In this document: piece by piece, positions 7,717 through 49,712 of the stretch | How the letters are laid out: every line of letters begins with the position of its first letter | How positions within the stretch are numbered: the stretch's first letter is position 1 | Assembly (NCBI RefSeq): GCF_036570325.1 | Contig: NZ_DATCYK010000028.1 | Location: 11,526-75,525, forward strand | DNA from: Prevotella sp. | Lineage (GTDB): Bacteria; Bacteroidota; Bacteroidia; Bacteroidales; Bacteroidaceae | Length of the DNA stretch: 64,000 nucleotides | Reading direction: 5' to 3' | Translations under genes and position numbers: made by a program | Notes under the pieces: model-generated | Told to the model about the DNA's origin: nothing | The model's input: only the letters and a program-made list of their open reading frames with translations | Database searches by the model: none

Positions 7717-7910
7717 GGCCATCCTGCCAACAACCTCGGATGGGTCATCCAATAACATCGGACCGGTCTGACTAGTCCGACTGGTCCGACCCGTCCGACG
7801 ATAAAATCGCCCGTCCCATCGCGGCCCTTTGGCCGCTCCAAAAGGCCGCGATAGGGCGACAAAAGCAGCCTTTTCGCTGGCCCGAAAGCCCCCTTTCACC
7901 GCCCCCCCTC
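7717..7910. repeat. Left flank of four-helix-bundle gene: shared ~28-bp motif, family A array, 11-bp-period tract
   Basis: ggccatcctgccaacaacctcggatgggtc; tcggaccggtctgactagtccgactggtccgacccgtccgac; caaaaggccgc/gatagggcgac/aaaagcagcct/tttcgctggcc. Confidence 0.8.
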
Positions 7911-8574: not shown

Positions 8575-8594
8575 GGCTTAGCGGGCAGGTTGTG

Positions 8595-8711
8595 CCTCAG
8601 ACGGGTCGGATTGGTCCGACCCGTCCGACCAAAGAGCCATGCTCTCAACCCAATAGGCCATCTGCCAACCTCGGATTGGTCCAACCGGTCCGACTAGTCA
8701 GACCGGTCTGA
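8595..8711. repeat. Right flank of four-helix-bundle gene: two family A arrays and second copy of the shared motif
   Basis: gggtcggattggtccgacccgtccgacc; ggccatctgccaacctcggattggtcc; ggtccgactagtcagaccggtctga. Confidence 0.8.
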
Positions 8712-8768
8712 TTCCCTCAAGAGCCTTCAAAATCCACCAAAATCTTTGACGATTTCGGCTAATTGTCT

Positions 8769-11445: not shown

Positions 11446-11542
11446 CGCTTTTCGGTAGGCCCGGCGCCGCTTCCATGCCCCGCCCATCGGCCACCGAAGC
11501 CCTTAACCCCATCTATTCTACACATTAGAAGCGATAAAAACC

Positions 11543-15816: not shown

Positions 15817-15902
15817 TTTGACAAGTTGACGAGCTACGAGTTGACAAGTAAACAAGTTGATAGTTTTAGTTAATGAGATACAAGTTAGCGAGTAAACAAG
15901 TA
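15817..15902 (+). repeat. Family C 7-8-bp array (GTTGACGA/GTTGACAA/GTAAACAA) in the EamA 5' leader
   Basis: gtttgacaagttgacgagctacgagttgacaagtaaacaagttgatag; lies just after promoter box TACCTTTG at 15800-15807. Confidence 0.8.
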
Positions 15903-15969
15903 GCATGAAGAGGGTGCGCCGCTATCCTCATACCGGCTATGGTTGTCCTCTGACCAGTTTTCATCAGCC

Positions 15970-16010
15970 GTCGGACCGGTCCGATTGGTCAGACTTGTCC
16001 GACCGGTCCG
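15970..16010. repeat. Family A array
   Basis: gtcggaccggtccgattggtcagacttgtccgaccggtccga. Confidence 0.85.
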
Positions 16011-16158
16011 AAGACTTTTCCGGAAAATAGGAGGCCAAAAGCCCCGCTATCCCCGCAAAACCACCCCTTCATCCGCCCAACTCCTCACCTTCACAACTGC
16101 GGTTCCGGGTACGGGCCGCCACGGCCTTGCCGCCCCCACAACCCAAAAAATTATCATT

Positions 16159-23883: not shown

Positions 23884-23983
23884 TGTTTATGATTGAGTTA
23901 TAATTGTTTCGTTTGACAGAAGCGTTGTCATGGATGCAAAGATACATATTATAAATGAGAAAACATCGCGGCCCGAATACAAA

Positions 23984-24015
23984 AAATTGGGCAGATTTTC
24001 ACAAATCCGCCCAAT
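23984..24015 (-). terminator. Terminator downstream of smalltalk peptide
   Basis: A-run then ttgggcaga-loop-tccgcccaa imperfect stem. Confidence 0.55.
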
Positions 24016-24072
24016 CCGTCAGTAATCATCTGTGTTGACTGTGGGGGCCTGCCCTCCGGCGGCCGCCGCGCT

Positions 24073-24180
24073 TCATTCGTTTGTCATGCTGTCGGCGCCC
24101 AAGGCCCCGAGCAGTGCCGTCGCCACGGCAATGATGACTTTAAAGAGTATTTTCCATGGTGTCAGATTCACTTGAGCCAT
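24073..24180 (-). CDS. smalltalk-family small membrane peptide, 35 aa (absent from ORF track)
   Basis: hand translation MAQVNLTPWKILFKVIIAVATALLGALGADSMTNE; ATG overlaps the TAA of the HU-like gene; matches the W-K-x-I-x-K-x-I-I-A-V-A-T-A-x-x-G-A-L-G pattern recalled for the family. Confidence 0.85.
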   Translation of the reverse strand: MAQVNLTPWKILFKVIIAVATALLGALGADSMTNE

Positions 24181-24605
24181 TAGTTACCTCCTTCCTCGCC
24201 GCTTGTGGCCGAGCCCGAGGGCTTGGTCGTGGTGGTCTTGTCGCCCTTCTTGCCGCTGGTGTACTCATCGGCCTCGGTAAACTCAACGCCGTGGAGCAAT
24301 GCCCGCTTACGGGCGTGGCTGGAACGGTCGACGGTGAGCTCGGGCTGGAAGAGCACATGCACGTTGCGAAGGTGCTTCGTGATGGTGAAATCCTTGGCTG
24401 TTTCGGCGGCACGGGTGGAGATTCCGATCTTGAAGGTGCCCAGTCCGTTGAGCTTAATGCGCATCGACTGCTGGAGCATGTCGGTCATCACCTCGGTCAG
24501 TTGGTTGGTCTCGACCACTCCCTTGTGGGTGGCGCGGGCGAACCACTTGCCCTTTGTCTTACTCTCCTTGCGGTTGTCCTGATACATTTTGTAATTTACT
24601 GCCAT
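24180..24605 (-). CDS. HU/IHF-related DNA-binding protein (Bacteroidetes type)
   Basis: KWFARA, IKLNGLGTFKIGIS, VLFQPE, low-complexity G/T/S tail. Confidence 0.85.
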   Translation of the reverse strand: MAVNYKMYQDNRKESKTKGKWFARATHKGVVETNQLTEVMTDMLQQSMRIKLNGLGTFKIGISTRAAETAKDFTITKHLRNVHVLFQPELTVDRSSHARKRALLHGVEFTEADEYTSGKKGDKTTTTKPSGSATSGEEGGN

Positions 24606-24711
24606 AATTGTTTGTGTTTTTTGGTTAATAATTGGTTTGTTGTTTGTTGATAATATGTAAGCCTACAATTTTCTTTTTCTTTCGTCGCCGATGGTTGCCC
24701 CGGGCCGGCGG

Positions 24712-25167
24712 TCATGCCGGCATGTAGTAGGGAATCATGATTTGTCGGTTGTGGCCTTCGCGGTAGCTCACGTGTATCCACTCGGCGCCCTGCAGGTTGT
24801 GCTCAAAGAGGAGCTGGTCGTAGTCCAAGGTCATGAAGATGAACTCCAGCATTTCTATGCCTTTGGCCCGTGAGGGGATGTGGATGTCGCAGGCCTCGCC
24901 GAAGATGTGCTGCGAGTGGGTGGCCCCTCCCACCATGCGGTTGAGCCATTCGGAGCGGTAGCCGCTGGTGACGCGGATGGGGCCAAACTCCTTTCGGAGG
25001 GGTTCGAGCACCTTGGTGCAGAGCCGTCGCAGGTTGTGTACTGCCTCGGGTGAGGGCGTGTTGTCGACGTGGTACCGGCGGGCCGTGGCCGAGCGGGTCA
25101 TCTCCTCGAGGGTGAAATGGGGCGTCAGCCGCAGCCGGTCGCCGTTGGTTGGGTTGTGTGTTTTCAT
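24712..25167 (-). CDS. Peptidase M15 (Zn D-Ala-D-Ala carboxypeptidase / endolysin-like)
   Basis: HFTLEEM, SGYRS, SQHIFGEACD, WIHVS; no signal peptide. Confidence 0.88.
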   Translation of the reverse strand: MKTHNPTNGDRLRLTPHFTLEEMTRSATARRYHVDNTPSPEAVHNLRRLCTKVLEPLRKEFGPIRVTSGYRSEWLNRMVGGATHSQHIFGEACDIHIPSRAKGIEMLEFIFMTLDYDQLLFEHNLQGAEWIHVSYREGHNRQIMIPYYMPA

Positions 25168-25182
25168 GGTAATGGGGGTTTT

Positions 25183-25396
25183 GGTTGGTGGTTGGGGAGG
25201 TTTTAGTTGGCAGTTGGGGAGTTGGGGGGATGAATGGTTAGCCGGGATTGGTGAGGGGTGGTAGTTGGGGGGATGAATGGTTAGTTGTTATTGGTTGAGG
25301 GTGAGTAGTTGGGGGGATGAATGGTTAGTTTTGTTTTTGCTCCTTCTATTTGCCTCAGCCCGGTCTGATTAGTCCGACTGGTCCGACTATTCCGAT
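25183..25396. repeat. Family B G-rich repeats (43-44-bp period) plus family A array
   Basis: three agttggggggatgaatggttag copies spaced 43 and 44 bp; cggtctgattagtccgactggtccgact. Confidence 0.8.
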
Positions 25397-25611
25397 AGCC
25401 TTAACAGCTCTCTGCCATCAACTGATTAACTTCTTTACTTATATCTTTCTAATGATGTGTGTTTCAATATTTACGATTTGGTTTTGTTACTTTCAACGAT
25501 GCAAAGATAAGGAGGTTTTTAAGGGTGGCCAAGGAGGTGGGCGATACACTTGTGCCTACACTGCCTCGACATTCCTGAAACGGCTGCTTCCGCGGGCCAC
25601 GGGCCAGCTCC

Positions 25612-26046
25612 TCACGCCCTGCTGACCAATTGGCGGCGTGGATCGAGGCCGTTGATTTTCATGAGGACCCAGCGATCGAGCAGCGAGCTCTGGCGCATCG
25701 ACTTGCGCATTTTGGCCCGATAGGCATACGACCGTGGATTGCGGGGCACGGGCTTCACCAGCCTGCGACACACCATTTCGACCATGTAGGCAAAGGTTAG
25801 GTCGCACCCGCGGGCGTCCTTCACGTCGCACACCGTGTAAACATCGCTCACCAGCTCCACGAGGTCGGTCGTGGTGCTCTGCCAACGCAGGCTGCCCCCG
25901 TCGCCACCATCAATGAGTTCCATCACGAATTGCTGCATTTCCTGCATCGCTTCCTCCCGAAGGGGTCTGAGTTCTGATTTCCTGAAAGTCTGTATGTGCC
26001 CCTGATACATCAATTTTACGTTTGTTTCTTCCATTTCTCTATTCAA
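25612..26046 (-). CDS. Hypothetical protein resembling the RteC C-terminal domain
   Basis: LRWQSTTTDLVELV and RKSMRQSSLLDR resemble RteC W-T-G-S-K-x-D-L-x-E-L and R-K...F-L-D motifs (from memory); promoter box at 26081-26088. Confidence 0.5.
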   Translation of the reverse strand: MNREMEETNVKLMYQGHIQTFRKSELRPLREEAMQEMQQFVMELIDGGDGGSLRWQSTTTDLVELVSDVYTVCDVKDARGCDLTFAYMVEMVCRRLVKPVPRNPRSYAYRAKMRKSMRQSSLLDRWVLMKINGLDPRRQLVSRA

Positions 26047-26149: not shown

Positions 26150-26430
26150 AGGTGGGCGGTTGAGGGGTTGGGGGATGAATGGTTTGCCTTGAGGGCGATA
26201 AGGTGAGAGGGTGAGGCGGCCTTGCCGCCGCTGTAGAGAGAGCGTCGGACGGGTCTGAGCTGTCGAATCGGTCCGATTAGTCTGACTGGTCCGACTCGTC
26301 CGACAGCTCCCTTTCCCCCCACCTCCTCACCCCCTCAGCCTGCCACCACGCCTCTTCTCCCTCCTCAAACCAGCCCTTTAGCTCGTCCAAAGGGCAGCTT
26401 TAAGGGCCCAAAAGGCCCACTTTTTCACAC
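26150..26430. repeat. Composite of family B, GCGGC hairpin, family A and 11-bp-period tract
   Basis: ggggatgaatggtt; ggcggccttgccgcc; gtccgattagtctgactggtccgactcgtccgac; tttagctcgtc/caaagggcagc/tttaagggccc/aaaaggcccac. Confidence 0.75.
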
Positions 26431-26560: not shown

Positions 26561-28801
26561 ATGACAAAAGGCAAAAAGGCCGGCAAACGACTGACCAAAA
26601 AACAATTGGCTGAGCGGATAGAGGAATTTTTCTCCGCCCTACCCGGAAAAACATTAAGTTTCAAAGAAATATTCAGAGCCCTCAAGCTCAACACCCACCC
26701 GCTCAAGATGCAGGCCATAGACATCATGGAGGAAATGGCGTGGGACGACTTTCTGGCCAAGGTTTCGGAAAATTCATACCGCCTCAACACCAATGGCCAA
26801 ATACAGGAAGGCACATTCCAGCGCAAGGCCAACGGCAAGAACTCCGTCATACCCGTGGATAGCGAGAAGCCCATCTTCGTGTCAGAGCGCAACTCCATGG
26901 GCGCCCTCACCGGCGACAAGGTAAAATTCTCGTTCATGGCTCGCCGCGTCAACCACATAAAGGAAGCGCAAGTCATCGAGATACTCGAGCGCAAGAAAGA
27001 CACCTTCGTGGGCCGCCTGAAGGTAGACAAGGACATGGCCTACCTCATACCCCAGTCCGACGTGCTGGCCCACAACATCATCATACCCCGCCGAAAGATA
27101 AAAGGCGGCAAGACAGACGACAAGGCCGTCGTGCGCGTAACGCAGTGGCCCGACGAGGAACGCAAGAGCCCCATCGGCGAAGTCATCGACATCTTGGGAC
27201 AGACGGGCGACAACGACGTCGAGATGAACACCATCCTCGCCCAATACGGACTGCCCTATAAATACCCCCAAGCCGTGGAGGAAGCCGCCAAGAAGATAAC
27301 CGGCGAGGTAACGAAGAAAGACCTTGACGAGCGCGAGGACTTCCGCCAAGTGTTCACCTGCACCATCGATCCCCGCGACGCCAAGGACTTCGACGACGCC
27401 CTCTCCATCCGCCTGCTCGACGCCCAAGGCCATCCCCTCACCCCGCAGGCCGCCAAGCAAGGCAAGGCAGCCCTCTACGAGGTGGGCGTGCACATAGCCG
27501 ACGTGAGCCACTACGTGACCGAAGGCTCCATCATCGACAAGGAAGCCGTCAAGCGAGCCACCAGCATTTACCTCGTCGACCGCACCATCCCCATGCTGCC
27601 CGAGCACCTCTGCAACTTCGTTTGCTCACTCCGCCCCAACGAGGAGAAGCTCGCCTACAGCGTCATCTTCACCATGGACGCCGACGCCGACATCAAATCA
27701 TCGCGCATAGTCCACACCGTCATCCGCAGCGACCGCCGCTACGCCTACGAGGAAGTACAACAAATCCTTGAGGACAACGGCGTCATCGACGGCACGGGAG
27801 AGCCCGCCCCACCCGCTCCCAAGGGCGGCTACAAGGGTGAGAACGCCCAACTGCTCATCCTCCTCGACCGACTGGCCAAGCAATTGCGTAGCAAACGATT
27901 CAAGAACGGCGCCGTGAAATTCGACCGAGAGGAGCTCCATTTCGACATCGACGAAAAGGGAAAGCCCACCCGCTGCTACTTCAAGAGCTCCAAGGACGCC
28001 AACAAGCTCATCGAGGAATTCATGCTGCTGGCCAACCGCACCGTGGCCGAGACCGTCGGAAAAGTAAAGAAAGGGCGCAAGGCAAAGACCCTTCCCTACC
28101 GCGTTCACGACAATCCCGACCCACAAAAAATGGAGACGCTGCGCCAATTCATCGCCAAATTCGGCTACAAAGTAAAGACCGATGGCACCAAGGGCGCCAT
28201 GGCCAAGAGCATTAACAAGCTCATGGACGACGTCGAAGGCAAGCGCGAGGGCAAAGTAATACAAACCGTGGCGCTCAGGGCCATGATGAAAGCCAAGTAC
28301 ACCACCCACAACATCGGCCACTTCGGGCTGGCCTTCGACTACTACACCCACTTTACCTCCCCCATACGCCGCTACCCCGACACCATCGTCCACCGACTCC
28401 TCACCCGCTACCAGCAAGGAGCGCGCAGCGCCAATGAGAAACATTGCGAGGAACTCTGCGAACATTGCTCCGACATGGAGCTCGTGGCACAGAACGCCGA
28501 GCGCGATTCCATCAAGTACAAGATGGTGGAATTCATGGCCGACAAGCTCGGACAGTCCTTCGACGCCCACATCAGCGGCATTACAAGCTACGGCATTTAC
28601 GCCGAGATCGACGACAACCACTGCGAGGGAATGATTCCCATGCGCGACTTGGATAACGACTACTACGAGTTCGACGAGCGCAACTTCTGCCTCGTGGGTC
28701 GCCGTCATCACCACAAATACCAGCTCGGCGACGCCATCCGCATCAAAGTGGCCAAGGCCAACCTCGAGAAAAAACAGCTCGACTTCGCCCTCGACGAGTA
28801 A
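26561..28801 (+). CDS. rnr: Ribonuclease R
   Basis: TIDPRDAKDFDDALS, GVHIADVSHYV, HFTSPIRRYPD, C-terminal S1 domain; promoter box TATCTTTG at 26461-26468. Confidence 0.96.
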   Translation: MTKGKKAGKRLTKKQLAERIEEFFSALPGKTLSFKEIFRALKLNTHPLKMQAIDIMEEMAWDDFLAKVSENSYRLNTNGQIQEGTFQRKANGKNSVIPVDSEKPIFVSERNSMGALTGDKVKFSFMARRVNHIKEAQVIEILERKKDTFVGRLKVDKDMAYLIPQSDVLAHNIIIPRRKIKGGKTDDKAVVRVTQWPDEERKSPIGEVIDILGQTGDNDVEMNTILAQYGLPYKYPQAVEEAAKKITGEVTKKDLDEREDFRQVFTCTIDPRDAKDFDDALSIRLLDAQGHPLTPQAAKQGKAALYEVGVHIADVSHYVTEGSIIDKEAVKRATSIYLVDRTIPMLPEHLCNFVCSLRPNEEKLAYSVIFTMDADADIKSSRIVHTVIRSDRRYAYEEVQQILEDNGVIDGTGEPAPPAPKGGYKGENAQLLILLDRLAKQLRSKRFKNGAVKFDREELHFDIDEKGKPTRCYFKSSKDANKLIEEFMLLANRTVAETVGKVKKGRKAKTLPYRVHDNPDPQKMETLRQFIAKFGYKVKTDGTKGAMAKSINKLMDDVEGKREGKVIQTVALRAMMKAKYTTHNIGHFGLAFDYYTHFTSPIRRYPDTIVHRLLTRYQQGARSANEKHCEELCEHCSDMELVAQNAERDSIKYKMVEFMADKLGQSFDAHISGITSYGIYAEIDDNHCEGMIPMRDLDNDYYEFDERNFCLVGRRHHHKYQLGDAIRIKVAKANLEKKQLDFALDE

Positions 28802-28877: not shown

Positions 28878-28952
28878 CAAAACAAATCAGCCGCATCTAA
28901 GAGTAGATGCGGCTGATTTGCTGTTTAAATAGCGTAGGGCTACGACTTCCTT
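28878..28952. repeat. Left hairpin direct repeat of the AT-rich island
   Basis: aaacaaatcagccgcatcta-agag-tagatgcggctgatttgctgttta...cgacttcctt. Confidence 0.9.
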
Positions 28953-29032
28953 GTCAACTCGTCGATTGATTTACTCGTCAACTCACAAGGGGCCCTACAA
29001 TTCAATAACTCAATTTGAAATTATAATATCTC

Positions 29033-29266
29033 TTAATACGGCGGTTCGTTATCATGATTCCATTTAATTCCTAACTCTGTGTAGGCTTCTTTAAAAACGT
29101 CTGACAAGCCTCTTTCTTTTAATAAATCATAAACGCCATTATCCATTATCTTTAGATTCTCATCTCTCTCGTCAGATTTGATTTGAGATAAAATAAACTC
29201 TGCATTCTCTTGAGATGTCCTTTTTACAAGAGCCGTTCTAAGTTTTGATTCAAAATTGTCTATCAT
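29033..29266 (-). CDS. Hypothetical protein, 77 aa
   Basis: ATG 23 nt downstream of the beta-barrel gene, same strand, helical acidic composition. Confidence 0.55.
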   Translation of the reverse strand: MIDNFESKLRTALVKRTSQENAEFILSQIKSDERDENLKIMDNGVYDLLKERGLSDVFKEAYTELGIKWNHDNEPPY

Positions 29267-29289
29267 GATTTCTTCTTTTGGGTTATTAT

Positions 29290-29874
29290 TTAAAACGTCA
29301 ATCTTAATTTTGCATTGACATTGAGATAGGTTCCACCATCATTTTTTAAGTCTTTATGCTTATAAAAAGCCAATTCAGGCGTGACAATAAATTGGAGATT
29401 ACGTGATTTGGTCAAGTTAAGGGCAACATTAACTCCAACCTTGGGAACAATGAAATGAGATGTTGATTTCTCATCCCATCTATGATCATCATGGTCAACA
29501 TAATCTTCAGTTTCCCAACTATAACCAATTCCCACTGTTGGCTCTATCTCAAGAATGCTGTTGGGCATAAAGAGTTCTGACACCTTTGCATGTCCGTTGA
29601 CACCAATAAATCCCAAAACTGCATCGGTCTCACCATATTCATTCTTTTTATGACGTGTTCCCAACTTTCCCTCAACACTCACACCCCATATTGGTGTGAA
29701 ATAACGGCCAAGGCTTAGTCCACCTCCCCAATAAGTCAAGTCATCCCTATCTCCAAGGTCCTGCATCATCACTCCACCAACTTCCACGAAATTCTTTTTT
29801 GATGGAGTTTCCTCTGCATAAACACCGACAACGGCTGTCAAAGCCAAAAATAAAATACTTAAAAACTTCATCAT
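29290..29874 (-). CDS. Outer-membrane beta-barrel protein, paralogue 2
   Basis: signal peptide, alternating beta strands, terminal Phe (KLRLTF). Confidence 0.8.
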   Translation of the reverse strand: MMKFLSILFLALTAVVGVYAEETPSKKNFVEVGGVMMQDLGDRDDLTYWGGGLSLGRYFTPIWGVSVEGKLGTRHKKNEYGETDAVLGFIGVNGHAKVSELFMPNSILEIEPTVGIGYSWETEDYVDHDDHRWDEKSTSHFIVPKVGVNVALNLTKSRNLQFIVTPELAFYKHKDLKNDGGTYLNVNAKLRLTF

Positions 29875-30485
29875 TAAAACTTCAATCTTAATTTTGCATT
29901 GACATTGAGGTTTGTGAAACCATCATTACGAACATCTTTATTCTTATAAAAAGCCAACTCTGGTGTAACAATAAATTGGAGATTACGTGATTTGGTCAAG
30001 TTAAGGGCAACATTAACCCCAACCTTGGGAACAATGAAATGCCATGTCTTATTCTTCTTTACAAGGTTAACTTCCTCATGCATCTCCTCTGTCCATTCAC
30101 TATTTTCATGAATCCAACTATAACCAATTCCCACAGTTGGCTCAATTTCAAGAATGCTGTTGGGCATAAAGAGTTCTGATACCTTAGCATGTCCGTTGAC
30201 ACCAACAAATCCTAAGACACCATCAGCTTTATCCCCTTCATCCTCATAATGACGGAAAACCACTTTTCCCTCAACACTCACGCCCCATATTGGTGTGAAA
30301 TAATGGCCAAGGCTCAGTCCACCTCCCCAATAAGTAAAGTTATCAAACTCTCCAAGGCCCTGCATCATCACACCACCAACCTCAGCGAAATTCTTTTTTG
30401 ATGAAGTTTCTTGTGCATAAACACCAACAACGGCTGTTAAAGCCAAAAATAAAATACTTAAAAACTTTTTCATAATGGTTTTCAT
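29874..30485 (-). CDS. Outer-membrane beta-barrel protein, paralogue 1
   Basis: as above (KLRLKF); TAATG overlap couples it to paralogue 2. Confidence 0.8.
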   Translation of the reverse strand: MKTIMKKFLSILFLALTAVVGVYAQETSSKKNFAEVGGVMMQGLGEFDNFTYWGGGLSLGHYFTPIWGVSVEGKVVFRHYEDEGDKADGVLGFVGVNGHAKVSELFMPNSILEIEPTVGIGYSWIHENSEWTEEMHEEVNLVKKNKTWHFIVPKVGVNVALNLTKSRNLQFIVTPELAFYKNKDVRNDGFTNLNVNAKLRLKF

Positions 30486-30614
30486 TTAATGTTTAAAAAA
30501 TTGATTTTAAAATAAAACTATCCGATAAAAATAATGTTATTCAATGTATGAATGTAGAACGTAGCAAACATAGAAACAACGCTGCTAAAACTAAAAGCTG
30601 TTTTATGATGGTAT

Positions 30615-31103
30615 TTATAAAAAGGTACGAAATGTAAATAAATGGAAAATAATATGCGCACACAGCAACAGACTGTAAAGCGTAAAGCTCATTGACGCAT
30701 AATATAACATTTGGTAAAGCATGGTTTCCTGACTAAGTAATTGGCATGTCATTACCATTAAGATATTAACTATCAATACTATGCAAAGAAAAGTTATCGT
30801 TGCAAAAACTACATTAATAGGCCTCTTTTTATCTTTAACTTTCTTACGTAATCTAACAATTACATCATGTCCTAAACTAAAGAAGATAGCTATACTCGCT
30901 ATTATAAAGCCCAATAGCTCTGACGTAATGTCAAGAGAACTGCCCAGAGACGATAATTTAGCATTTTCAGTAATGGGATTAAGGAAATAAAGAATTACTC
31001 CCACTAACATGCAAACCAAAAATAAAATCCAAGGACAACACTTTAAATTAGAATTAAGATCGTGGATTACGTAACATAATTTTTCATCTTTTATCATATA
31101 CAA
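30615..31103 (-). CDS. Hypothetical membrane protein with about 4 TM helices
   Basis: 162 aa, four hydrophobic stretches, AT-rich codons. Confidence 0.65.
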   Translation of the reverse strand: MYMIKDEKLCYVIHDLNSNLKCCPWILFLVCMLVGVILYFLNPITENAKLSSLGSSLDITSELLGFIIASIAIFFSLGHDVIVRLRKKVKDKKRPINVVFATITFLCIVLIVNILMVMTCQLLSQETMLYQMLYYASMSFTLYSLLLCAHIIFHLFTFRTFL

Positions 31104-31164
31104 AATATATTACTCTACTTCTCCCACATAGAGTTGATTAATAAAGTTAATATATTATAGTATA

Positions 31165-31571
31165 TACGAAAAAGCGTGGGAGACTTACAGTTACCCGTCC
31201 CACGATCTTGAGGTCTTCGCATTACCCGACATAGTTGAACGAGCAACGAGACCCCACGCCGATATGAAAAAGCATTATACACCTATACACCCCATCTTTG
31301 CCATGTCTGCAAATGAGCAGAATGGGCATAACGAGGCTATAGGGCAGAATACATTAATTCACACCCATGGGCATCTACCGTTGCTATGTTCTTGACTATG
31401 TCTGGAAGTTTGCGAAGTTTCAAGATCGTCAAGGACAAAGCGCATGTAAACGCCTTACCATATATAAATAGTCCCCACACCGGCAATTTTGTCTCATCAG
31501 ACGTTTTGCCCTTTCCCTGCACCATTCTGTTAACAGAAGAGGCCATCGGCGTGGAAACTTTTACAAAGATA
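31165..31571 (-). promoter_or_regulatory. Putative long structured 5' leader / attenuator
   Basis: promoter box TATCTTTG at 31564-31571; inverted repeats 31197-31249/31379-31436 and 31254-31263/31545-31554; gcgtggg...cccacgc followed by TTTTT. Confidence 0.55.
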
Positions 31572-31720
31572 AGAATTATATTTATAATAACATGAGTTCT
31601 ACGAATTATAATTGCTGAAACATTTATATGACAGACGGCTTCAGCAAGTTTTTTGATTAAATGACAGAAAAATAGGCAGTTATACCGTCAAAATAAGCAG
31701 TCGTTATTGACTTATGATAC

Positions 31721-31795
31721 AAAAACAAATCAGCCGCATCTATCTTTAGATGCGGCTGACTTGCTGTTTAGGAAGCAAAGGATTGCGACTTCCTT
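31721..31795. repeat. Right hairpin direct repeat of the AT-rich island
   Basis: aaacaaatcagccgcatcta-tctt-tagatgcggctgacttgctgttta...cgacttcctt. Confidence 0.9.
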
Positions 31796-31868
31796 TCTAT
31801 GAATATGGGTTTAATGCTTCTTAAGAAGCCCACTTCCGCGGGGTCATAACAGCCCGGTGGCGGGGGCA

Positions 31869-32978
31869 TTAAGCCTTTTCAAAGGCCTCGGCCTCGGCTT
31901 GGGCGATGATGTCCTCACGGCTCATGCGCTGGGCACTGATGTCGCTCAGGTCGAACTCTTCATCGGCTTGACGGGCCGTGGAGGGCGGAGCGGCCTCTTT
32001 CTCGGCCTTGGCGGCTACCATTTCGTTGCTCGAGCGGTACATGGGTGACCGGCGGCTGCGGCGCGAGTCGTCCTTATATACCGTTTCGCTGAAGGCCGTG
32101 GTGTGCTTCTCCTCTACCTTCGGCTCGGCCGCTTGGCTGATGATGAAGTCTTCCTTCTGCTCGGTGGCGGGCACGTTCTGCACGGGTTCCTCCTCCATCT
32201 TGGTGCGGTTGGCCTTGGCGGCGAAGACGCTGTCGATGAATTGTGGCTCCTTGCGCAGTTTCTCCAAGGTGAGCTTGGCGGCTTTCTGCTGGCTTTCTTT
32301 CTTGCTGTAGCCGGTCCCGGCACAGCCCTTGATACCTTCGAGCACCACACGATAGTTGAAAATGGGACTTCCGTTCTCGTCGGTTTGCTCGTCGACGCTC
32401 TCAAATCCCATTTTCACCCGGTTCTTCTGGCTCCACTCTATGAGCTTGCTCTTGAAGTTGACCTCCTTGTACGCCACCTTGTCTATGTTGATGATTTCCT
32501 TGAGCACACGGTCTCTCATGAAGCGCATGCAGGCGTTGTAGCCGCGGTCCAAGTAGATGGCGCCCACCAAGGCCTCGAAGGCGTTGCCGCCCATGTAGCT
32601 GTTGTGGGACGAGCTTCGGCCGTTGCTCAGTATCAGTCGACTGATACCCATTTCCTTGGCCAGCCGGTTGAGCGTGTCGCGCTGTACCAGTTTGGAGCGT
32701 GTATTGGTGAGAAAACCCTCTCGTTTGCCGGGAAAATGTTGGTAGACGATGTCGCCCACGATGGCGTCGAGGATGGCGTCGCCCAAGAATTCGAGCCGCT
32801 CGTTGTTGACGGGCTTGCCTTTGGCGTTGCGACGCATGACGCTCTTGTGCATCAGGGCCAGCTTGTAGTAGCTGATGTCGTGGGGAAAGAAGCCTATAAT
32901 CTCGTATAAAGACAAATAAAGCTCCTTATCCTTGCGGAAAGGGAGCTTTATTCTATCAATGATGTTACTACTCAGCAT
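31869..32978 (-). CDS. rnc: Ribonuclease III with long acidic C-terminal extension
   Basis: NERLEFLGDAIL, GNAFEALVGAIYLD, dsRBD NFKSKLIEW...GYSKKESQQKAA. Confidence 0.95.
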   Translation of the reverse strand: MLSSNIIDRIKLPFRKDKELYLSLYEIIGFFPHDISYYKLALMHKSVMRRNAKGKPVNNERLEFLGDAILDAIVGDIVYQHFPGKREGFLTNTRSKLVQRDTLNRLAKEMGISRLILSNGRSSSHNSYMGGNAFEALVGAIYLDRGYNACMRFMRDRVLKEIINIDKVAYKEVNFKSKLIEWSQKNRVKMGFESVDEQTDENGSPIFNYRVVLEGIKGCAGTGYSKKESQQKAAKLTLEKLRKEPQFIDSVFAAKANRTKMEEEPVQNVPATEQKEDFIISQAAEPKVEEKHTTAFSETVYKDDSRRSRRSPMYRSSNEMVAAKAEKEAAPPSTARQADEEFDLSDISAQRMSREDIIAQAEAEAFEKA

Positions 32979-36779: not shown

Positions 36780-37310
36780 AATGGAATAGAATCATTCTTT
36801 TCATGCGATGTATATAATCCTCTTACCTGATATAATTTATCTTTTCTCCTATTATATATAATAAGGTAAACAGCCCACACCCCCACGCCTCAATCGTTTT
36901 CCCCATCTTCCGAGTTATCCACAAAAAGTGTGGATAACCCTGTTGAAAACCTTCTCATAAGCCCGTTGATAACTTGGTGCATATCCACACCCATCAGGTC
37001 GGAGGGCCGTCACCGTGGATATCCACAGCTTTATCCCGCGGTATTCATTGAGTTTTCAACCGTTTTTCAGCCAAAAAAGTTATCAACTTATCAACGCTTC
37101 GGGATTGTCCCCATTATTGTGGAAAACCATTCCAACCCATTGATTATCACTCAATAGATATTGCTCCAAGCAGTGGAAAGCCCTTTCTCCCGTGTTAATA
37201 GTTAAACTACCAAATTTTTACTCCTAAAGTTATGAACATATCCACAGCCTATCATCTTACTCTTTTTTTTATTCTTTAAAGAAAGAAAAGTAAATAAGAT
37301 AATAATGAGT
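36780..37310. other. Probable chromosomal replication origin (oriC)
   Basis: perfect DnaA boxes TTATCCACA 36915-36923 and TGTGGATAA 36929-36937; near-matches at 36964, 36981, 37014/37019, 37031, 37080, 37088, 37118, 37238; AT-rich tracts on both sides; gene-free. Confidence 0.8.
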
Positions 37311-37322
37311 TGGGGAGAAATG

Positions 37323-37455
37323 GGTTGGTGGTTGGGAAGTTGGGGGGATGAATGGTTTGATAATAAGGTTGGTGGTTGGGAGGTTGGGGGGATGAATAGT
37401 TTGAGAATAAGGTTGGTGGTTGGGAGGTTGAGGGGATGAATAATTTGTTGAGAAG
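37323..37455 (+). repeat. Three tandem 44-bp G-rich units (family B)
   Basis: ggttggtggttggga starts at 37323, 37367 and 37411. Confidence 0.9.
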
Positions 37456-46960: not shown

Positions 46961-49303
46961 ATGAAAATCAATTGCAGATATTTCATCGCAATGCTCCTTG
47001 TTTTTATTCTTTCCCTCGCCCCCTGCCTTGCCCAGAGCGGTCAGGAGCGCGTGATTAAGGTGACCGTGGTGGAGAAAGGCACGCTCGAACCCGTGGTGGG
47101 CGCCGTGGTGAGAGAGGGAAAGAAGATGTACGTTACCGACGGCTCGGGCTGTTGCTCGGTGCGATGTGACGCCTCGGGACGGGTGGTGCTCTCGGTGAGG
47201 TCGCTCGAATACGAGGAGATTATTGCCCATCCTTATGTGGTGAAAGACGGCTCGGGGCTGACCATTTACCTCCGTCGGTCGGTTAAAATGCTCGGTACGG
47301 TCAACGTGGAGGCCCAAAGGAAACAGACCTCCGTGCTGCAACAAGTGGCCAAAATCGACGCCAAGACGCTCGAGAAAAGCTCCGCCCTGTCGTTGGCGCA
47401 GCTCTTGGAGAAGGTGCCCGGCGTGAGTAGTATCAGTTCGGGCAACGCTGTGGCCAAGCCGGTGATACAAGGTATGCACAGCAGTCGCATTCTCTTGGTC
47501 AACAACGGCGTACGATTAGAGAGTCAGAACTGGGGCATTGACCACGCGCCCGAGATAGATCATACGGCCTCAAGCATAGTGGAGGTGATCAAAGGGGCCG
47601 AATCCATACGCTATGGTTACGGCGCCGTGGGTGGCGTTGTGCTGCTCGATCAGGCTCCGTTGCCCTTTGGCGCCGAGCGGTTGAAGGTGAAGGGCGTGGC
47701 CAACGTGGGCTACTCCACCAACAGCAACGCCTATGACGGGGCGGCGACGATGGATTTCGGTTATAAGAAAACGGGTCTCCGCCTGCACGGCATGTACCAA
47801 CGGGCCGGCGATTACCGCACCGCCGAATACCGACTTAACAACACCGGATACAAGAACATCAGCCTCTCGGCCCTCTTGGGCTATCGCACCAACCGCCTCA
47901 CGGCCAAGCTCTTTGCCTCGTTGTACTACTCGAGGAGCGGCGTGTATTACGGCAGCAACGTGTCGGACATGGACCAACTCTTGGCCCGCTTCATGCGGGG
48001 AAGGCCCGAGGAGAATACCATCCGCCCCTTCAGTTACCACATAGAGCCGCCTTTCCAGCAGTCGCAGCACGTCACGATGAAGGCCGACGCCACGTGGGAC
48101 GTGGCCCAAAGGCACAGCCTTATCTTCAGTCTTTCGTTTCAAGAGAACCTTCGGCAGGAGTTCGAGAATCGTAAAATAAAGCGTTTCAGTTGGATTCCCG
48201 TGCAGGATTTGCGGCTCAAGACCTTCAACGGCGAGGCGATATGGAATGCCAATTGGACGCCCTCCATGGTGTCGCAGTTAGGCGTTTCGGGCATGTACCA
48301 GACCAATTTCAACGTCCCCGGCACCAAACAGCCGGCCTTCATTCCCAACTTCGCCGCCCTCACCACGGGCTTCTTCCTGCTCCATAAGATGACCTTCGGG
48401 CGGCTGATGTGCTCCGCCGGCATGCGCTACGACATGCGGGGGCTCGACGTGAACGGCTATACCAGCCTATCGAGTTTCCAATATTACGACGATTTTAAGG
48501 TGTATAGCAACTTCACCGGCAGCCTCGCGGCCCACTATCAGTTCAACGATAACCTCGACGCACGCCTCAACATAGGCTGGGCTTGGCGCCCGCCCGACAT
48601 CAATGAGCTTTACGCCGGCGGCCTGCACAACGGCACTTACTGGGTCGTGGGCAATCGGGAGCTGACCAGCGAGCGAGGTTACAAGGCCGTGATGGGCGCC
48701 CGTTATCGTACGACATGGTTCTCCATAGAGCCCGGCATGTTCTTTCAAAACATCACGAACTACATTTATGACTGCATAGGCAGTGGCAACGACCGCTTCC
48801 ATAACCACCCCAGCGGCAAGTATCCTAAGTTTGTTTACGGGCAGGACAACGCCCGCTTCATCGGTGGCGACGTGGTGGCGACGGTGCGACCGATAGAGAG
48901 TTTGACGTTGAGTGCCAAGGGCGAGTGGATCAGCGCCCGCAACTTGTCGCAAAAGGCGTGGATGCCTTTCATGCCGTCGGACAGGTATGAGTTGGCCGCC
49001 GATTACCAAACGACGATTGGAAAGAGATGGCACGCCGGATTGGTGGTCGAAGGTCGATATGTAACCAAGCAGACACGCTTCGACCCGGTGAAAGACTTGG
49101 TGCCCGACACGCCGCCCGCCTACTTCCTCCTCGGTGGCTCGGCGGAGGCCTCAACAGAGCTTCCGGGTGGCACGAAGCTCAAGTTCGTCCTCGTGGGCGA
49201 CAACGTCCTGAACCGTCTTTACAAGGAATATACCGACCGCTTCAGGTACTATGCCCATGAGCGGGGCGCCAAATTCACCCTGAGAACCATCGTAACGTTT
49301 TGA
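46961..49303 (+). CDS. TonB-dependent receptor (non-SusC type)
   Basis: signal peptide, N-terminal carboxypeptidase-like domain, plug (PVIQGMHSSRILLVNNGV, EVIKGAESIRYG), barrel ending in Phe. Confidence 0.92.
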   Translation: MKINCRYFIAMLLVFILSLAPCLAQSGQERVIKVTVVEKGTLEPVVGAVVREGKKMYVTDGSGCCSVRCDASGRVVLSVRSLEYEEIIAHPYVVKDGSGLTIYLRRSVKMLGTVNVEAQRKQTSVLQQVAKIDAKTLEKSSALSLAQLLEKVPGVSSISSGNAVAKPVIQGMHSSRILLVNNGVRLESQNWGIDHAPEIDHTASSIVEVIKGAESIRYGYGAVGGVVLLDQAPLPFGAERLKVKGVANVGYSTNSNAYDGAATMDFGYKKTGLRLHGMYQRAGDYRTAEYRLNNTGYKNISLSALLGYRTNRLTAKLFASLYYSRSGVYYGSNVSDMDQLLARFMRGRPEENTIRPFSYHIEPPFQQSQHVTMKADATWDVAQRHSLIFSLSFQENLRQEFENRKIKRFSWIPVQDLRLKTFNGEAIWNANWTPSMVSQLGVSGMYQTNFNVPGTKQPAFIPNFAALTTGFFLLHKMTFGRLMCSAGMRYDMRGLDVNGYTSLSSFQYYDDFKVYSNFTGSLAAHYQFNDNLDARLNIGWAWRPPDINELYAGGLHNGTYWVVGNRELTSERGYKAVMGARYRTTWFSIEPGMFFQNITNYIYDCIGSGNDRFHNHPSGKYPKFVYGQDNARFIGGDVVATVRPIESLTLSAKGEWISARNLSQKAWMPFMPSDRYELAADYQTTIGKRWHAGLVVEGRYVTKQTRFDPVKDLVPDTPPAYFLLGGSAEASTELPGGTKLKFVLVGDNVLNRLYKEYTDRFRYYAHERGAKFTLRTIVTF

Positions 49304-49314
49304 TGAAAGAGTTT

Positions 49315-49695
49315 TTTAGTTGACGAGTAAACAAGTTGACGAGTTGACAAGTTGTTAGTTTTAAGTTGATAAGTTGATGGTTGAAGTTGACGAGCTACGA
49401 GTTAATGAGTAAACAAGTTGATGGAAACTATCTCTTGAATGCAATTTTATAGTTTATGAAAATACGATTTAATGATTTTAAAAGCAGCCTTATTACCTCT
49501 TAATAGTGGCTTAATCGCCGCTTAAAAGCGGCCTAATGGCGAGGTAAAAGGGCTGTAATCACTAATAACTTGTTCACTCGTTAACTTGTCAACTCGTCAA
49601 CTAAAACCTCGTTTACTCGTCCACTAAGCCATCAACTTGTCAACTCATTAACTTGTATCTCGTCAACTAAAACCTCCCAACTCGTCAACTAAAAT
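49315..49695. repeat. Composite element: inverted family C arrays around an 11-bp-period core
   Basis: gttgacgagtaaacaag... (49318-49425) versus ...cttgtcaactcgtcaac (49570-49692); core aaaagcagcct/tattacctctt/aatagtggctt/aatcgccgctt/aaaagcggcct. Confidence 0.85.
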
Positions 49696-49712
49696 AACAA
49701 ATGCACTTGAAT

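Follow-up and report, generated by a model that had tools for sequence, protein, structure and literature searches.

A low-G+C islet between rnr and rnc of a Prevotella genome lies between two copies of a terminator-like hairpin repeat and is read as a probable scar of insertion at a host terminator

The 64,000-nucleotide (nt) window analysed here (the whole stretch of DNA studied, positions 11,526 to 75,525 of contig NZ_DATCYK010000028.1 in the Prevotella sp. assembly GCF_036570325.1) contains, between the convergent genes rnr and rnc, an A+T-rich islet whose two ends are formed by direct copies of a long hairpin repeat, named DR1 and DR2. The original prediction, made from the sequence of the window, had placed low-G+C cargo between these two genes, and both the protein domains and the base composition were found to agree with it. 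The genes and repeats at the borders of the islet were as follows.

26561-28801, + strand: rnr (RNase R, 746 amino acids (aa)), left flank, with native G+C and the domains Pfam RNB (7e-104), CSD2 and S1
28879-28952, no strand: DR1, consisting of an A-run, the hairpin H1, the run TTTGCTGTTTA, a small variable hairpin region H2 and the tail CGACTTCCTT
28883-28920: H1 of DR1, a perfect 17-bp stem (28883-28899 with 28904-28920) with the loop AGAG
31722-31795, no strand: DR2, with H1 at 31726-31763 and the loop TCTT; on the - strand, 19 pairs and then UUUUUG
31869-32978, - strand: rnc (RNase III, 369 aa, with a long C-terminal tail), right flank, with RNase III and dsrm domains; last gene of acpP-fabF-rnc

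The repeat search of the window found the two copies to be 74 nt each, 82% identical and at a spacing of 2843 nt, close to the equal-length hairpin direct repeats of approximately 75 bp that had been predicted. Both copies were built of the same parts in the same order: A-run, hairpin H1, run, a 15-nt variable spacer able to form a small second hairpin, and the tail, which had already been recognized as shared, as had the difference between the loops AGAG and TCTT. The stem had been given as a conserved 14 to 16 bp. When measured, it was a perfect 17 bp in DR1 and a perfect 13 bp in DR2, the latter lengthening to 19 pairs on the - strand; a long stem was present in both copies, of other lengths than stated. 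On the - strand DR1 folded into a main stem of 18 pairs (17 Watson-Crick pairs and one G-U) with a bulged outer helix, which corresponds to the bulged outer arm of the prediction, followed by the tail UUUUGAGG.

When the whole genome (2.96 Mb, 141 contigs, 92% complete) was searched for further copies, as the original prediction had proposed, the second copy was found at E = 3.7e-15 and the next matches at E > 0.2. The repeat unit occurred at two genomic sites only, both of them the ends of the islet, and the idea that the hairpin is a genome-wide repeat was rejected on that count. When the window was shuffled 100 times, the core pattern never appeared. Within the 64 kb there were five perfect hairpins of at least 11 bp, all distinct in sequence except the DR1 and DR2 pair. 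Scans with the exact stem patterns, from which diverged copies would escape, gave 0 matches in the Joint Genome Institute (JGI) metagenome contigs, in viral contigs and in 185,579 GTDB species genomes. A hairpin of 79% similarity in one congener (G012), 3' of an unrelated gene of 846 aa, was taken as a look-alike terminator.

Since the genome is a metagenome bin of 141 contigs, misassembly, or a chance likeness between two independent terminators, was weighed as an explanation of the repeats. Its probability is negligible in view of the E value of the second copy, the extension of the shared sequence past the hairpin, and the spanning of both junctions in the runs SRR3712179 and SRR3712207 by different assemblers at 97-100% identity. 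From SRR3712179, a 42.7-kb ENA contig matched the entire region with 100% identity over 11.5 kb, and a separate Logan contig covered rnc, DR2, the leader and the first gene of the islet. From SRR3712207, one contig (L058, 99.5% identical) ran from rnr through DR1 and the 77-aa gene into a barrel gene, another (L064, 97.5%) from a barrel gene through the 77-aa gene and DR1 into rnr, and a third (L061, 98.1%) from fabF through rnc and DR2 into the insertion sequence (IS) relic. In a strain of run SRR15023601 that was 98% identical, DR2 also followed rnc, the contig stopping inside the hairpin. The junctions are genuine and not the product of misassembly.

The composition of the islet is foreign to its surroundings. 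The G+C content of the interior was 28-43% compared to 55-62% in the flanks, and that of the islet genes 35% compared to 54.5% for the window. The sharp fall began near 28990 and not at the outer edge of DR1, because the following stretch lies between them.

28953-28990, no strand: short repeats of the GTCAACTCG type, a family of the genome's own intergenic repeats (D7/D9; also at 15823-15905, 19206 and 49302-49705)

This stretch had a G+C content of 45-48% and holds GTCAAC-type intergenic repeats native to the genome, which suggests that DR1 sits in intergenic DNA of native type. Thus, of the predicted islet bounded by repeats, the repeats stood as flanks of the A+T-rich block, and the edge of composition did not fall at the outer border of DR1.

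All four folds of the repeats were approximately 6 standard deviations more stable than those of shuffled sequences (z about -6), and DR2 was flagged on both strands in a terminator scan. DR1 lies 78 nt 3' of the rnr stop codon on the + strand and approximately 80 nt 3' of the stop codon of the 77-aa gene on the - strand, while DR2 lies approximately 100 nt 3' of the rnc stop codon on the - strand. A U-run follows the stem on the - strand in both copies, as UUUUUG in DR2 and as UUUUGAGG in DR1. The marks of an intrinsic terminator, a stable stem-loop with a U-run (on the - strand) and a position shortly past stop codons, were therefore present. Transcripts of rnc and of the islet operon on the - strand would each enter tail, small hairpin H2, H1 and U-run in that order, which is expected from duplication of one target.

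The sequence downstream of rnc was read in 15 metagenome loci of congeners, 14 of which were long enough to judge. In 14 of 14 a hairpin of 13-20 bp was found 20-110 nt past the stop codon, each different in sequence and mostly placed between A and T runs, and similar hairpins were found after rnr in several congeners. By form and place, DR2 is most likely the terminator to be expected after rnc, and the hairpin most likely an ordinary transcription terminator. The repeats resemble the rho-independent bidirectional terminators of Bacteroidales in the A-run, the long G+C-containing stem, the T-run and the position 78-100 nt past the stops. Such terminators are normally present in single copy, whereas here one unit occurs twice, including 30 nt of non-hairpin sequence.

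DR1 and DR2 differed at 13 positions, 12 of them in the 4-nt loop and the 15-nt spacer and 1 in the other 55 nt, these two classes having been chosen partly post hoc. The sole difference within the stem changes an A-T pair to G-T. In a sister strain, positions 2-50 were identical between the copies, the loop CCTT included, and the overall identity was 89%. Between strains 2-3% apart genome-wide, the DR1 loop was wholly replaced (AGAG versus CCTT), and DR2 differed at 10 of 74 positions. Judged from these comparisons of sequence, the long stem is kept constant, and the loop and spacer change quickly. Covariation in the small second hairpin is not claimed; each of the spacer variants folds, though not in a common register. 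Inversion of the loop by template switching (AGAG versus CCTT or TCTT) was discarded, the loops not being exact reverse complements.

The original prediction had called the islet integrase-less. Domain searches found no recombinase or transposase domain in the interior open reading frames (ORFs), in keeping with that claim, but the interior is not free of traces of mobile DNA.

31612-31690, + strand: 5'-terminal relic of a transposase gene of the IS982 family, interrupted by two in-frame stops and ending approximately 30 nt before DR2

Over the 66 nt of positions 31612-31677, 80.6% identity was found with a Prevotella nigrescens replicon, in which this stretch opens a frameshifted IS982 transposase gene (NF033520 1.7e-65, PF13612 1e-69). 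The frame of the relic, MTDGFSKFFD*MTEK*AVIPS, matched MADDFCKFFDAMTTKYALKPA at 12 of 21 residues, and the relic also matched four places in a congener (G018). No intact IS982 copy was found within the window, and from its reading frame the relic is judged to be an IS982 fragment only and no functional member. Because the similarity ends approximately 30 nt before DR2, some 900 nt of the element, perhaps together with further DNA, is taken to have been deleted at the inner edge of DR2.

On balance, the islet is probably the scar of an insertion at a host terminator, both copies of which would now serve as terminators. The prediction had offered, as one of two readings, that a bidirectional terminator was duplicated as an attachment (att)-like site, and this reading fits the form and place of the hairpins, their uniqueness to the islet ends and the orientation of the copies. 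As we reconstruct the order of events, the ancestral unit would have been a two-hairpin, factor-independent transcription terminator of the host. A foreign A+T-rich block would have entered at this terminator and left one copy on each side, either by insertion with long target duplication, for which the insert need carry no recombinase gene, or by Campbell-type integration with later loss of the mobility genes. Both copies would have been kept because both were needed as terminators: in vivo, DR2 would end the acpP-fabF-rnc transcript and shield the islet promoter, and DR1 would terminate the islet operon (- strand) and probably also rnr (+ strand). The need for a terminator at both sites would account for a long stem that has stayed the same beside drifting loops and spacer. 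At a later time, an IS982-type element would have landed by DR2 and been cut to approximately 80 nt, in a deletion that could have taken more sequence.

Several observations weigh against the insertion scar. The U-run after DR1 on the + strand is weak (CUGUUUAAAU). The copies are only 82% identical (89% in the sister strain), which suggests that the event is old or that the copies were edited, and the relic adjoining DR2 indicates that at least one later rearrangement shaped that border. In 24 of 24 congeners rnr and rnc were non-adjacent, lying 57-216 kb apart when on one contig, and the ancestral state of rnr, terminator and rnc is itself hypothetical for that reason. Moreover, no single-copy empty site was found in the 24 congeners, in 80 metagenome loci of congeners or in the same-species contigs that reach the site, so that target duplication can only be inferred.

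The comparison of the rnr-rnc interval across strains, which the prediction had proposed as a check, therefore gave neither a single-hairpin empty site nor a different cargo. As the adjacency of rnr and rnc is specific to the species, this interval has no counterpart for comparison in relatives. The 3' end of rnr was 70-83% identical in 23 of 24 congeners. All 80 congener loci carried fabF-rnc (80/80), and none had rnr, the cargo, the repeats, the leader or the IS relic within 5 kb downstream of rnc. In contigs of the same species from three runs, DR2 was found beside rnc, and in two of these runs the sequence continued into the same islet in the same orientation; no alternative cargo or other orientation was found in the same-species contigs, and every reliable one that reached far enough held the same islet with the same junction repeat. 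A contig with an alternative junction at 31826 (L062; GCA_024712465.1, JAMQYI012584698.1) was discarded as chimeric, its 97%-identical rnc being joined at both ends to unrelated sequence and its head consisting of inverted pieces of another species' rnc. It calls for caution in strain comparisons that rest on such metagenome assemblies.

Downstream of rnc the order of genes varied among the congeners. In three contigs (L078, L079 and L084, two of them near-identical), leuS lay 336 nt after rnc. In the window, leuS is at 23888-26046, beyond rnr, and the gap of approximately 8 kb from rnc to leuS holds the islet, the opposite-strand rnr, a 132-aa gene and a module of M15 peptidase, HU-like and DUF6486 genes. 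In other congener loci, the next recognisable gene after rnc was a homologue of window 15521-13179. In the closest species (G023; L045 3438-5018), rnc was followed by an A+T-rich pair of genes of 241 aa (with an AAA/ABC-like P-loop motif seen by eye) and 282 aa, a further sign that accessory genes land in the 3' flank. What lies 3' of rnr was different in each congener read. The islet is thus situated at a rearrangement junction peculiar to the species, within a region that is variable in the genus.

These comparisons bear on a further explanation, in which no insertion took place at a single target and the second terminator was carried along when rnr and rnc were joined, for instance by an IS-mediated rearrangement between IS982 copies or by homologous import of a diverged allele through the flanks. 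The joining of the two genes is unique to the species, and rnr is the only + strand gene in an otherwise - strand run; rnr itself may have moved to its present place. The 3' flank of rnc varies among members of the genus. The IS982 relic lies at the DR2 border, and the alleles of the islet are 83-96% identical compared to 97-98% for the flanking core genes, which suggests exchange by recombination. Rearrangement, however, leaves unexplained why exactly the terminator unit alone was duplicated directly at both edges of the foreign block, and no second IS982 copy or relic was found at the DR1 border. We regard it as distinctly unlikely.

The deletion at DR2 also allows for a decayed integrative element, a reading that is possible though not probable. 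Cis-mobilizable elements (CIMEs) are integrative and conjugative elements (ICEs) or integrative and mobilizable elements (IMEs) which lost their integration and transfer genes and retained attL and attR (PMC5704250). In a CIME-like history DR1 and DR2 would be attL and attR, the terminator would be the integration site of a site-specific recombinase, and the integrase would have been lost in the deletion that truncated the IS982 copy by DR2; what is left could still be mobilised, in cis or in trans, by a related resident element. Consistent with this, integrase-less foreign DNA lies between direct repeats and shows decay in the IS relic and in the deletion by one repeat, whose junction is directly inside DR2 at the usual position of an integrase gene, and the promoter-leader module is of a family present at other accessory loci of the genus. 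But no integrase remnant was found in the islet, and scans of the 185,579 genomes, the JGI metagenomes and the viral contigs, with exact stem patterns only, gave no related intact element and no second use of the site. Neither exact stem patterns nor phage or plasmid matches pointed to attL or attR of a detectable ICE, IME or phage family. In addition, 74 nt is long for an att core, the identity pattern is one of conserved stems with a variable loop and spacer rather than of a core with differing arms, and the site is a terminator and not a tRNA gene or the 3' end of a gene, unlike in CIMEs.

The other reading of the prediction was that the hairpins are attC-like cassette sites around a variable cargo slot, that is, active recombination sites of attC, Xer/dif or IS200/IS605 subterminal type used by a recombinase encoded elsewhere to exchange a cassette. 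The form of the repeats invited it: they are of equal length and in direct orientation, with conserved stems, variable loops and a bulged outer arm, and occur at the islet ends only. Like integron attC sites, including those of integrase-less clusters, they are imperfect hairpins of similar length with variable loops that flank genes, with no integrase nearby. The feet of the hairpins, however, are CTCAAAACAAAT and GCTGTTTAAAT or GCTGTTTAGGA, and no 7-mer on either strand fits the R''/R' consensus; neither RYYYAAC/GTTRRRY boxes nor dif-like arms with a 6-8-nt centre were found. Two copies were found in the genome and, with exact patterns, none elsewhere; they form no array, and other cargo was not found. 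What they enclose is no promoterless cassette but an operon of four genes under a promoter of its own, and the same islet is present in the same orientation across same-species contigs. A 1.6-kb unitig-based contig passes DR2 unbranched, which is weak evidence in the same direction, and the ordinary terminators of the genus account for the form of the hairpins. For IS200/IS605-type or Xer-like sites in particular, nothing was found beyond the hairpins themselves, in a single genomic instance. Active sites are, in our view, very unlikely, and the attC-like reading was not borne out.

The scar of insertion at a terminator finds its closest likeness in insertion with long target duplication, a phenomenon initially described with the restriction-modification genes of Helicobacter pylori and surveyed by Furuta, Abe and Kobayashi in 2010 (PMC2853133), in which genome-unique direct repeats of more than 30 bp surround low-G+C inserts of less than 20 kb without mobility genes (PMC2853133). 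The present islet agrees in its genome-unique 74-nt repeats, its 2.8-kb low-G+C insert, the lack of a mobility gene except for the dead IS982 relic of approximately 80 nt, and the position of the repeat at the 3' end of a gene or between genes. It differs in that the cargo is a membrane and outer-membrane operon and not a restriction-modification system, that the duplicated target is a terminator hairpin, and that divergence has brought the copies down to 82% identity; a genome with an empty site underlies the published cases, and none was found here. These comparisons indicate that the islet is most likely of a known but poorly understood kind of insertion and not a new gene-cassette system. 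The islet does not settle the mechanism, no empty site having been found and the copies having diverged.

It would add a Bacteroidota example to a scattered class of insertions that lack mobility genes and duplicate a long target, here a complete terminator. Quite doubtful, but worth stating, is a general mechanism by which long terminator hairpins would be preferred landing sites of an undescribed process, recombinase-independent or acting in trans, in which the terminator is duplicated in full, as might happen if DNA were inserted where an extruded cruciform has staggered breaks; the islet would then be one aged example from Bacteroidota. If insertions do prefer terminators, a newcomer would arrive insulated from its neighbours. 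In Neisseria, minimal mobile elements are variable blocks without a recombinase that lie between conserved genes and can be moved between strains by homologous recombination in the flanks. The islet is likewise a variable recombinase-less block between conserved genes that could be moved in this way; no alternative occupants of it are known and its flanking pair is species-specific, unlike in those elements.

The interior of the islet was found to be one operon on the - strand, with a promoter, a leader and genes for a 160-aa protein, two paralogues of 203 and 194 aa and a 77-aa protein.

31564-31571, - strand: -7 box TTATCTTTG of Bacteroidetes type, as read from the sequence
31170-31571, - strand: leader or noncoding RNA (ncRNA) of approximately 390 nt, the coordinates including the -7 box, ending in its own hairpin and T-run at 31170-31205
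30615-31097, - strand: ORF of an orphan hydrophobic protein of 160 aa, probably membrane-bound; first gene of the operon
29874-30485, - strand: predicted 8-stranded outer-membrane beta-barrel paralogue of 203 aa (199 aa from the second ATG), by AlphaFold model and Foldseek
29290-29874, - strand: predicted 8-stranded outer-membrane beta-barrel paralogue of 194 aa; PF13505 just under the cut-off; 80% identical to the 203-aa copy
29033-29266, - strand: ORF of an orphan 77-aa protein without a family match; last gene of the operon

The AlphaFold model of the 203-aa protein (mean confidence score, pLDDT, 82) has a signal helix and 8 strands, and its nearest solved folds by Foldseek were the OmpA membrane domain, OmpX, Ail and NspA (E 6e-8 to 5e-6). 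Each barrel protein carries a signal peptide and closes on an aromatic residue (...RLKF and ...RLTF), and their genes also registered as tandem repeat families D1/D2 in the repeat search of the window. By structure prediction both paralogues have the features of 8-stranded barrels like OmpX and the OmpA membrane domain. Among 1.84 billion representatives, 10 relatives of the barrel were found at E <= 0.001, and none was found in named genomes. The 160-aa protein gave no family match and has a single known variant, 83% identical, while the 77-aa protein found only itself among 5.8 billion proteins. No phage, defence-related or NCBIfam family fits the interior proteins, the cargo matched no phage record, and its sole plasmid match was the 66-nt IS relic. 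The cargo genes were absent from the 24 congeners and the 80 congener loci.

Two blocks of the leader (approximately 31160-31270 and 31355-31470) matched, at 68-81% identity, between one and five loci in many congeners. In one of these (G007; L042 1455-1790), the leader element stood 5' of unrelated genes, whose products are a protein of 127 aa, a twin-arginine peptide rich in Cys and a radical SAM enzyme. The leader had no Rfam match, and Rfam and tRNA scans of the region were empty. It looks like a genus-wide leader or ncRNA module of accessory operons.

Alleles of the operon were found in the population: a version 91% identical (L053), a single-barrel version with proteins of 160, 193 and 77 aa (L063), and a version 97.5% identical (L064), compared to window 29198-31219. 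The variation among strains is, on these alleles, allelic (one or two barrel genes, 83-97% identity) and not an exchange of cargo. The 160-aa protein differed by 17% between alleles compared to 2-3% in the flanking core genes. The operon is suggested to be one of surface proteins under diversifying selection or exchange, and insertion at a terminator would be a possible route of entry for orphan surface-protein genes into gut Prevotella-like genomes.

One further hairpin-forming element lies between rnc and DR2.

31816-31829, no strand: 14-nt perfect palindrome GCTTCTTAAGAAGC, which folds as a small hairpin

The tail of RNase III after the double-stranded RNA-binding domain is approximately 120 aa long, and, as congeners align to about residues 353-369, it is shared by the genus. 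In different runs, two Logan contigs (L145 and L146) both end approximately 830-850 nt into rnr, short of DR1; strain variation, or a repeat within rnr, may account for this near-common end point. The short tandem repeats found between genes in the window fall into three families, with the 9-nt period TCNGACNNG (at least 37 overlapping register matches), GTTGAC(G/A)AG and GTTGGGGGGATGAATGGTT, and one member adjoins DR1. Example sites of these tandem repeats are 33-100, 7749-7807, 8588-8720, 15962-16020 and 26245-26321; 15823-15905 and 49302-49705; and 25191-25332 and 37309-37451.

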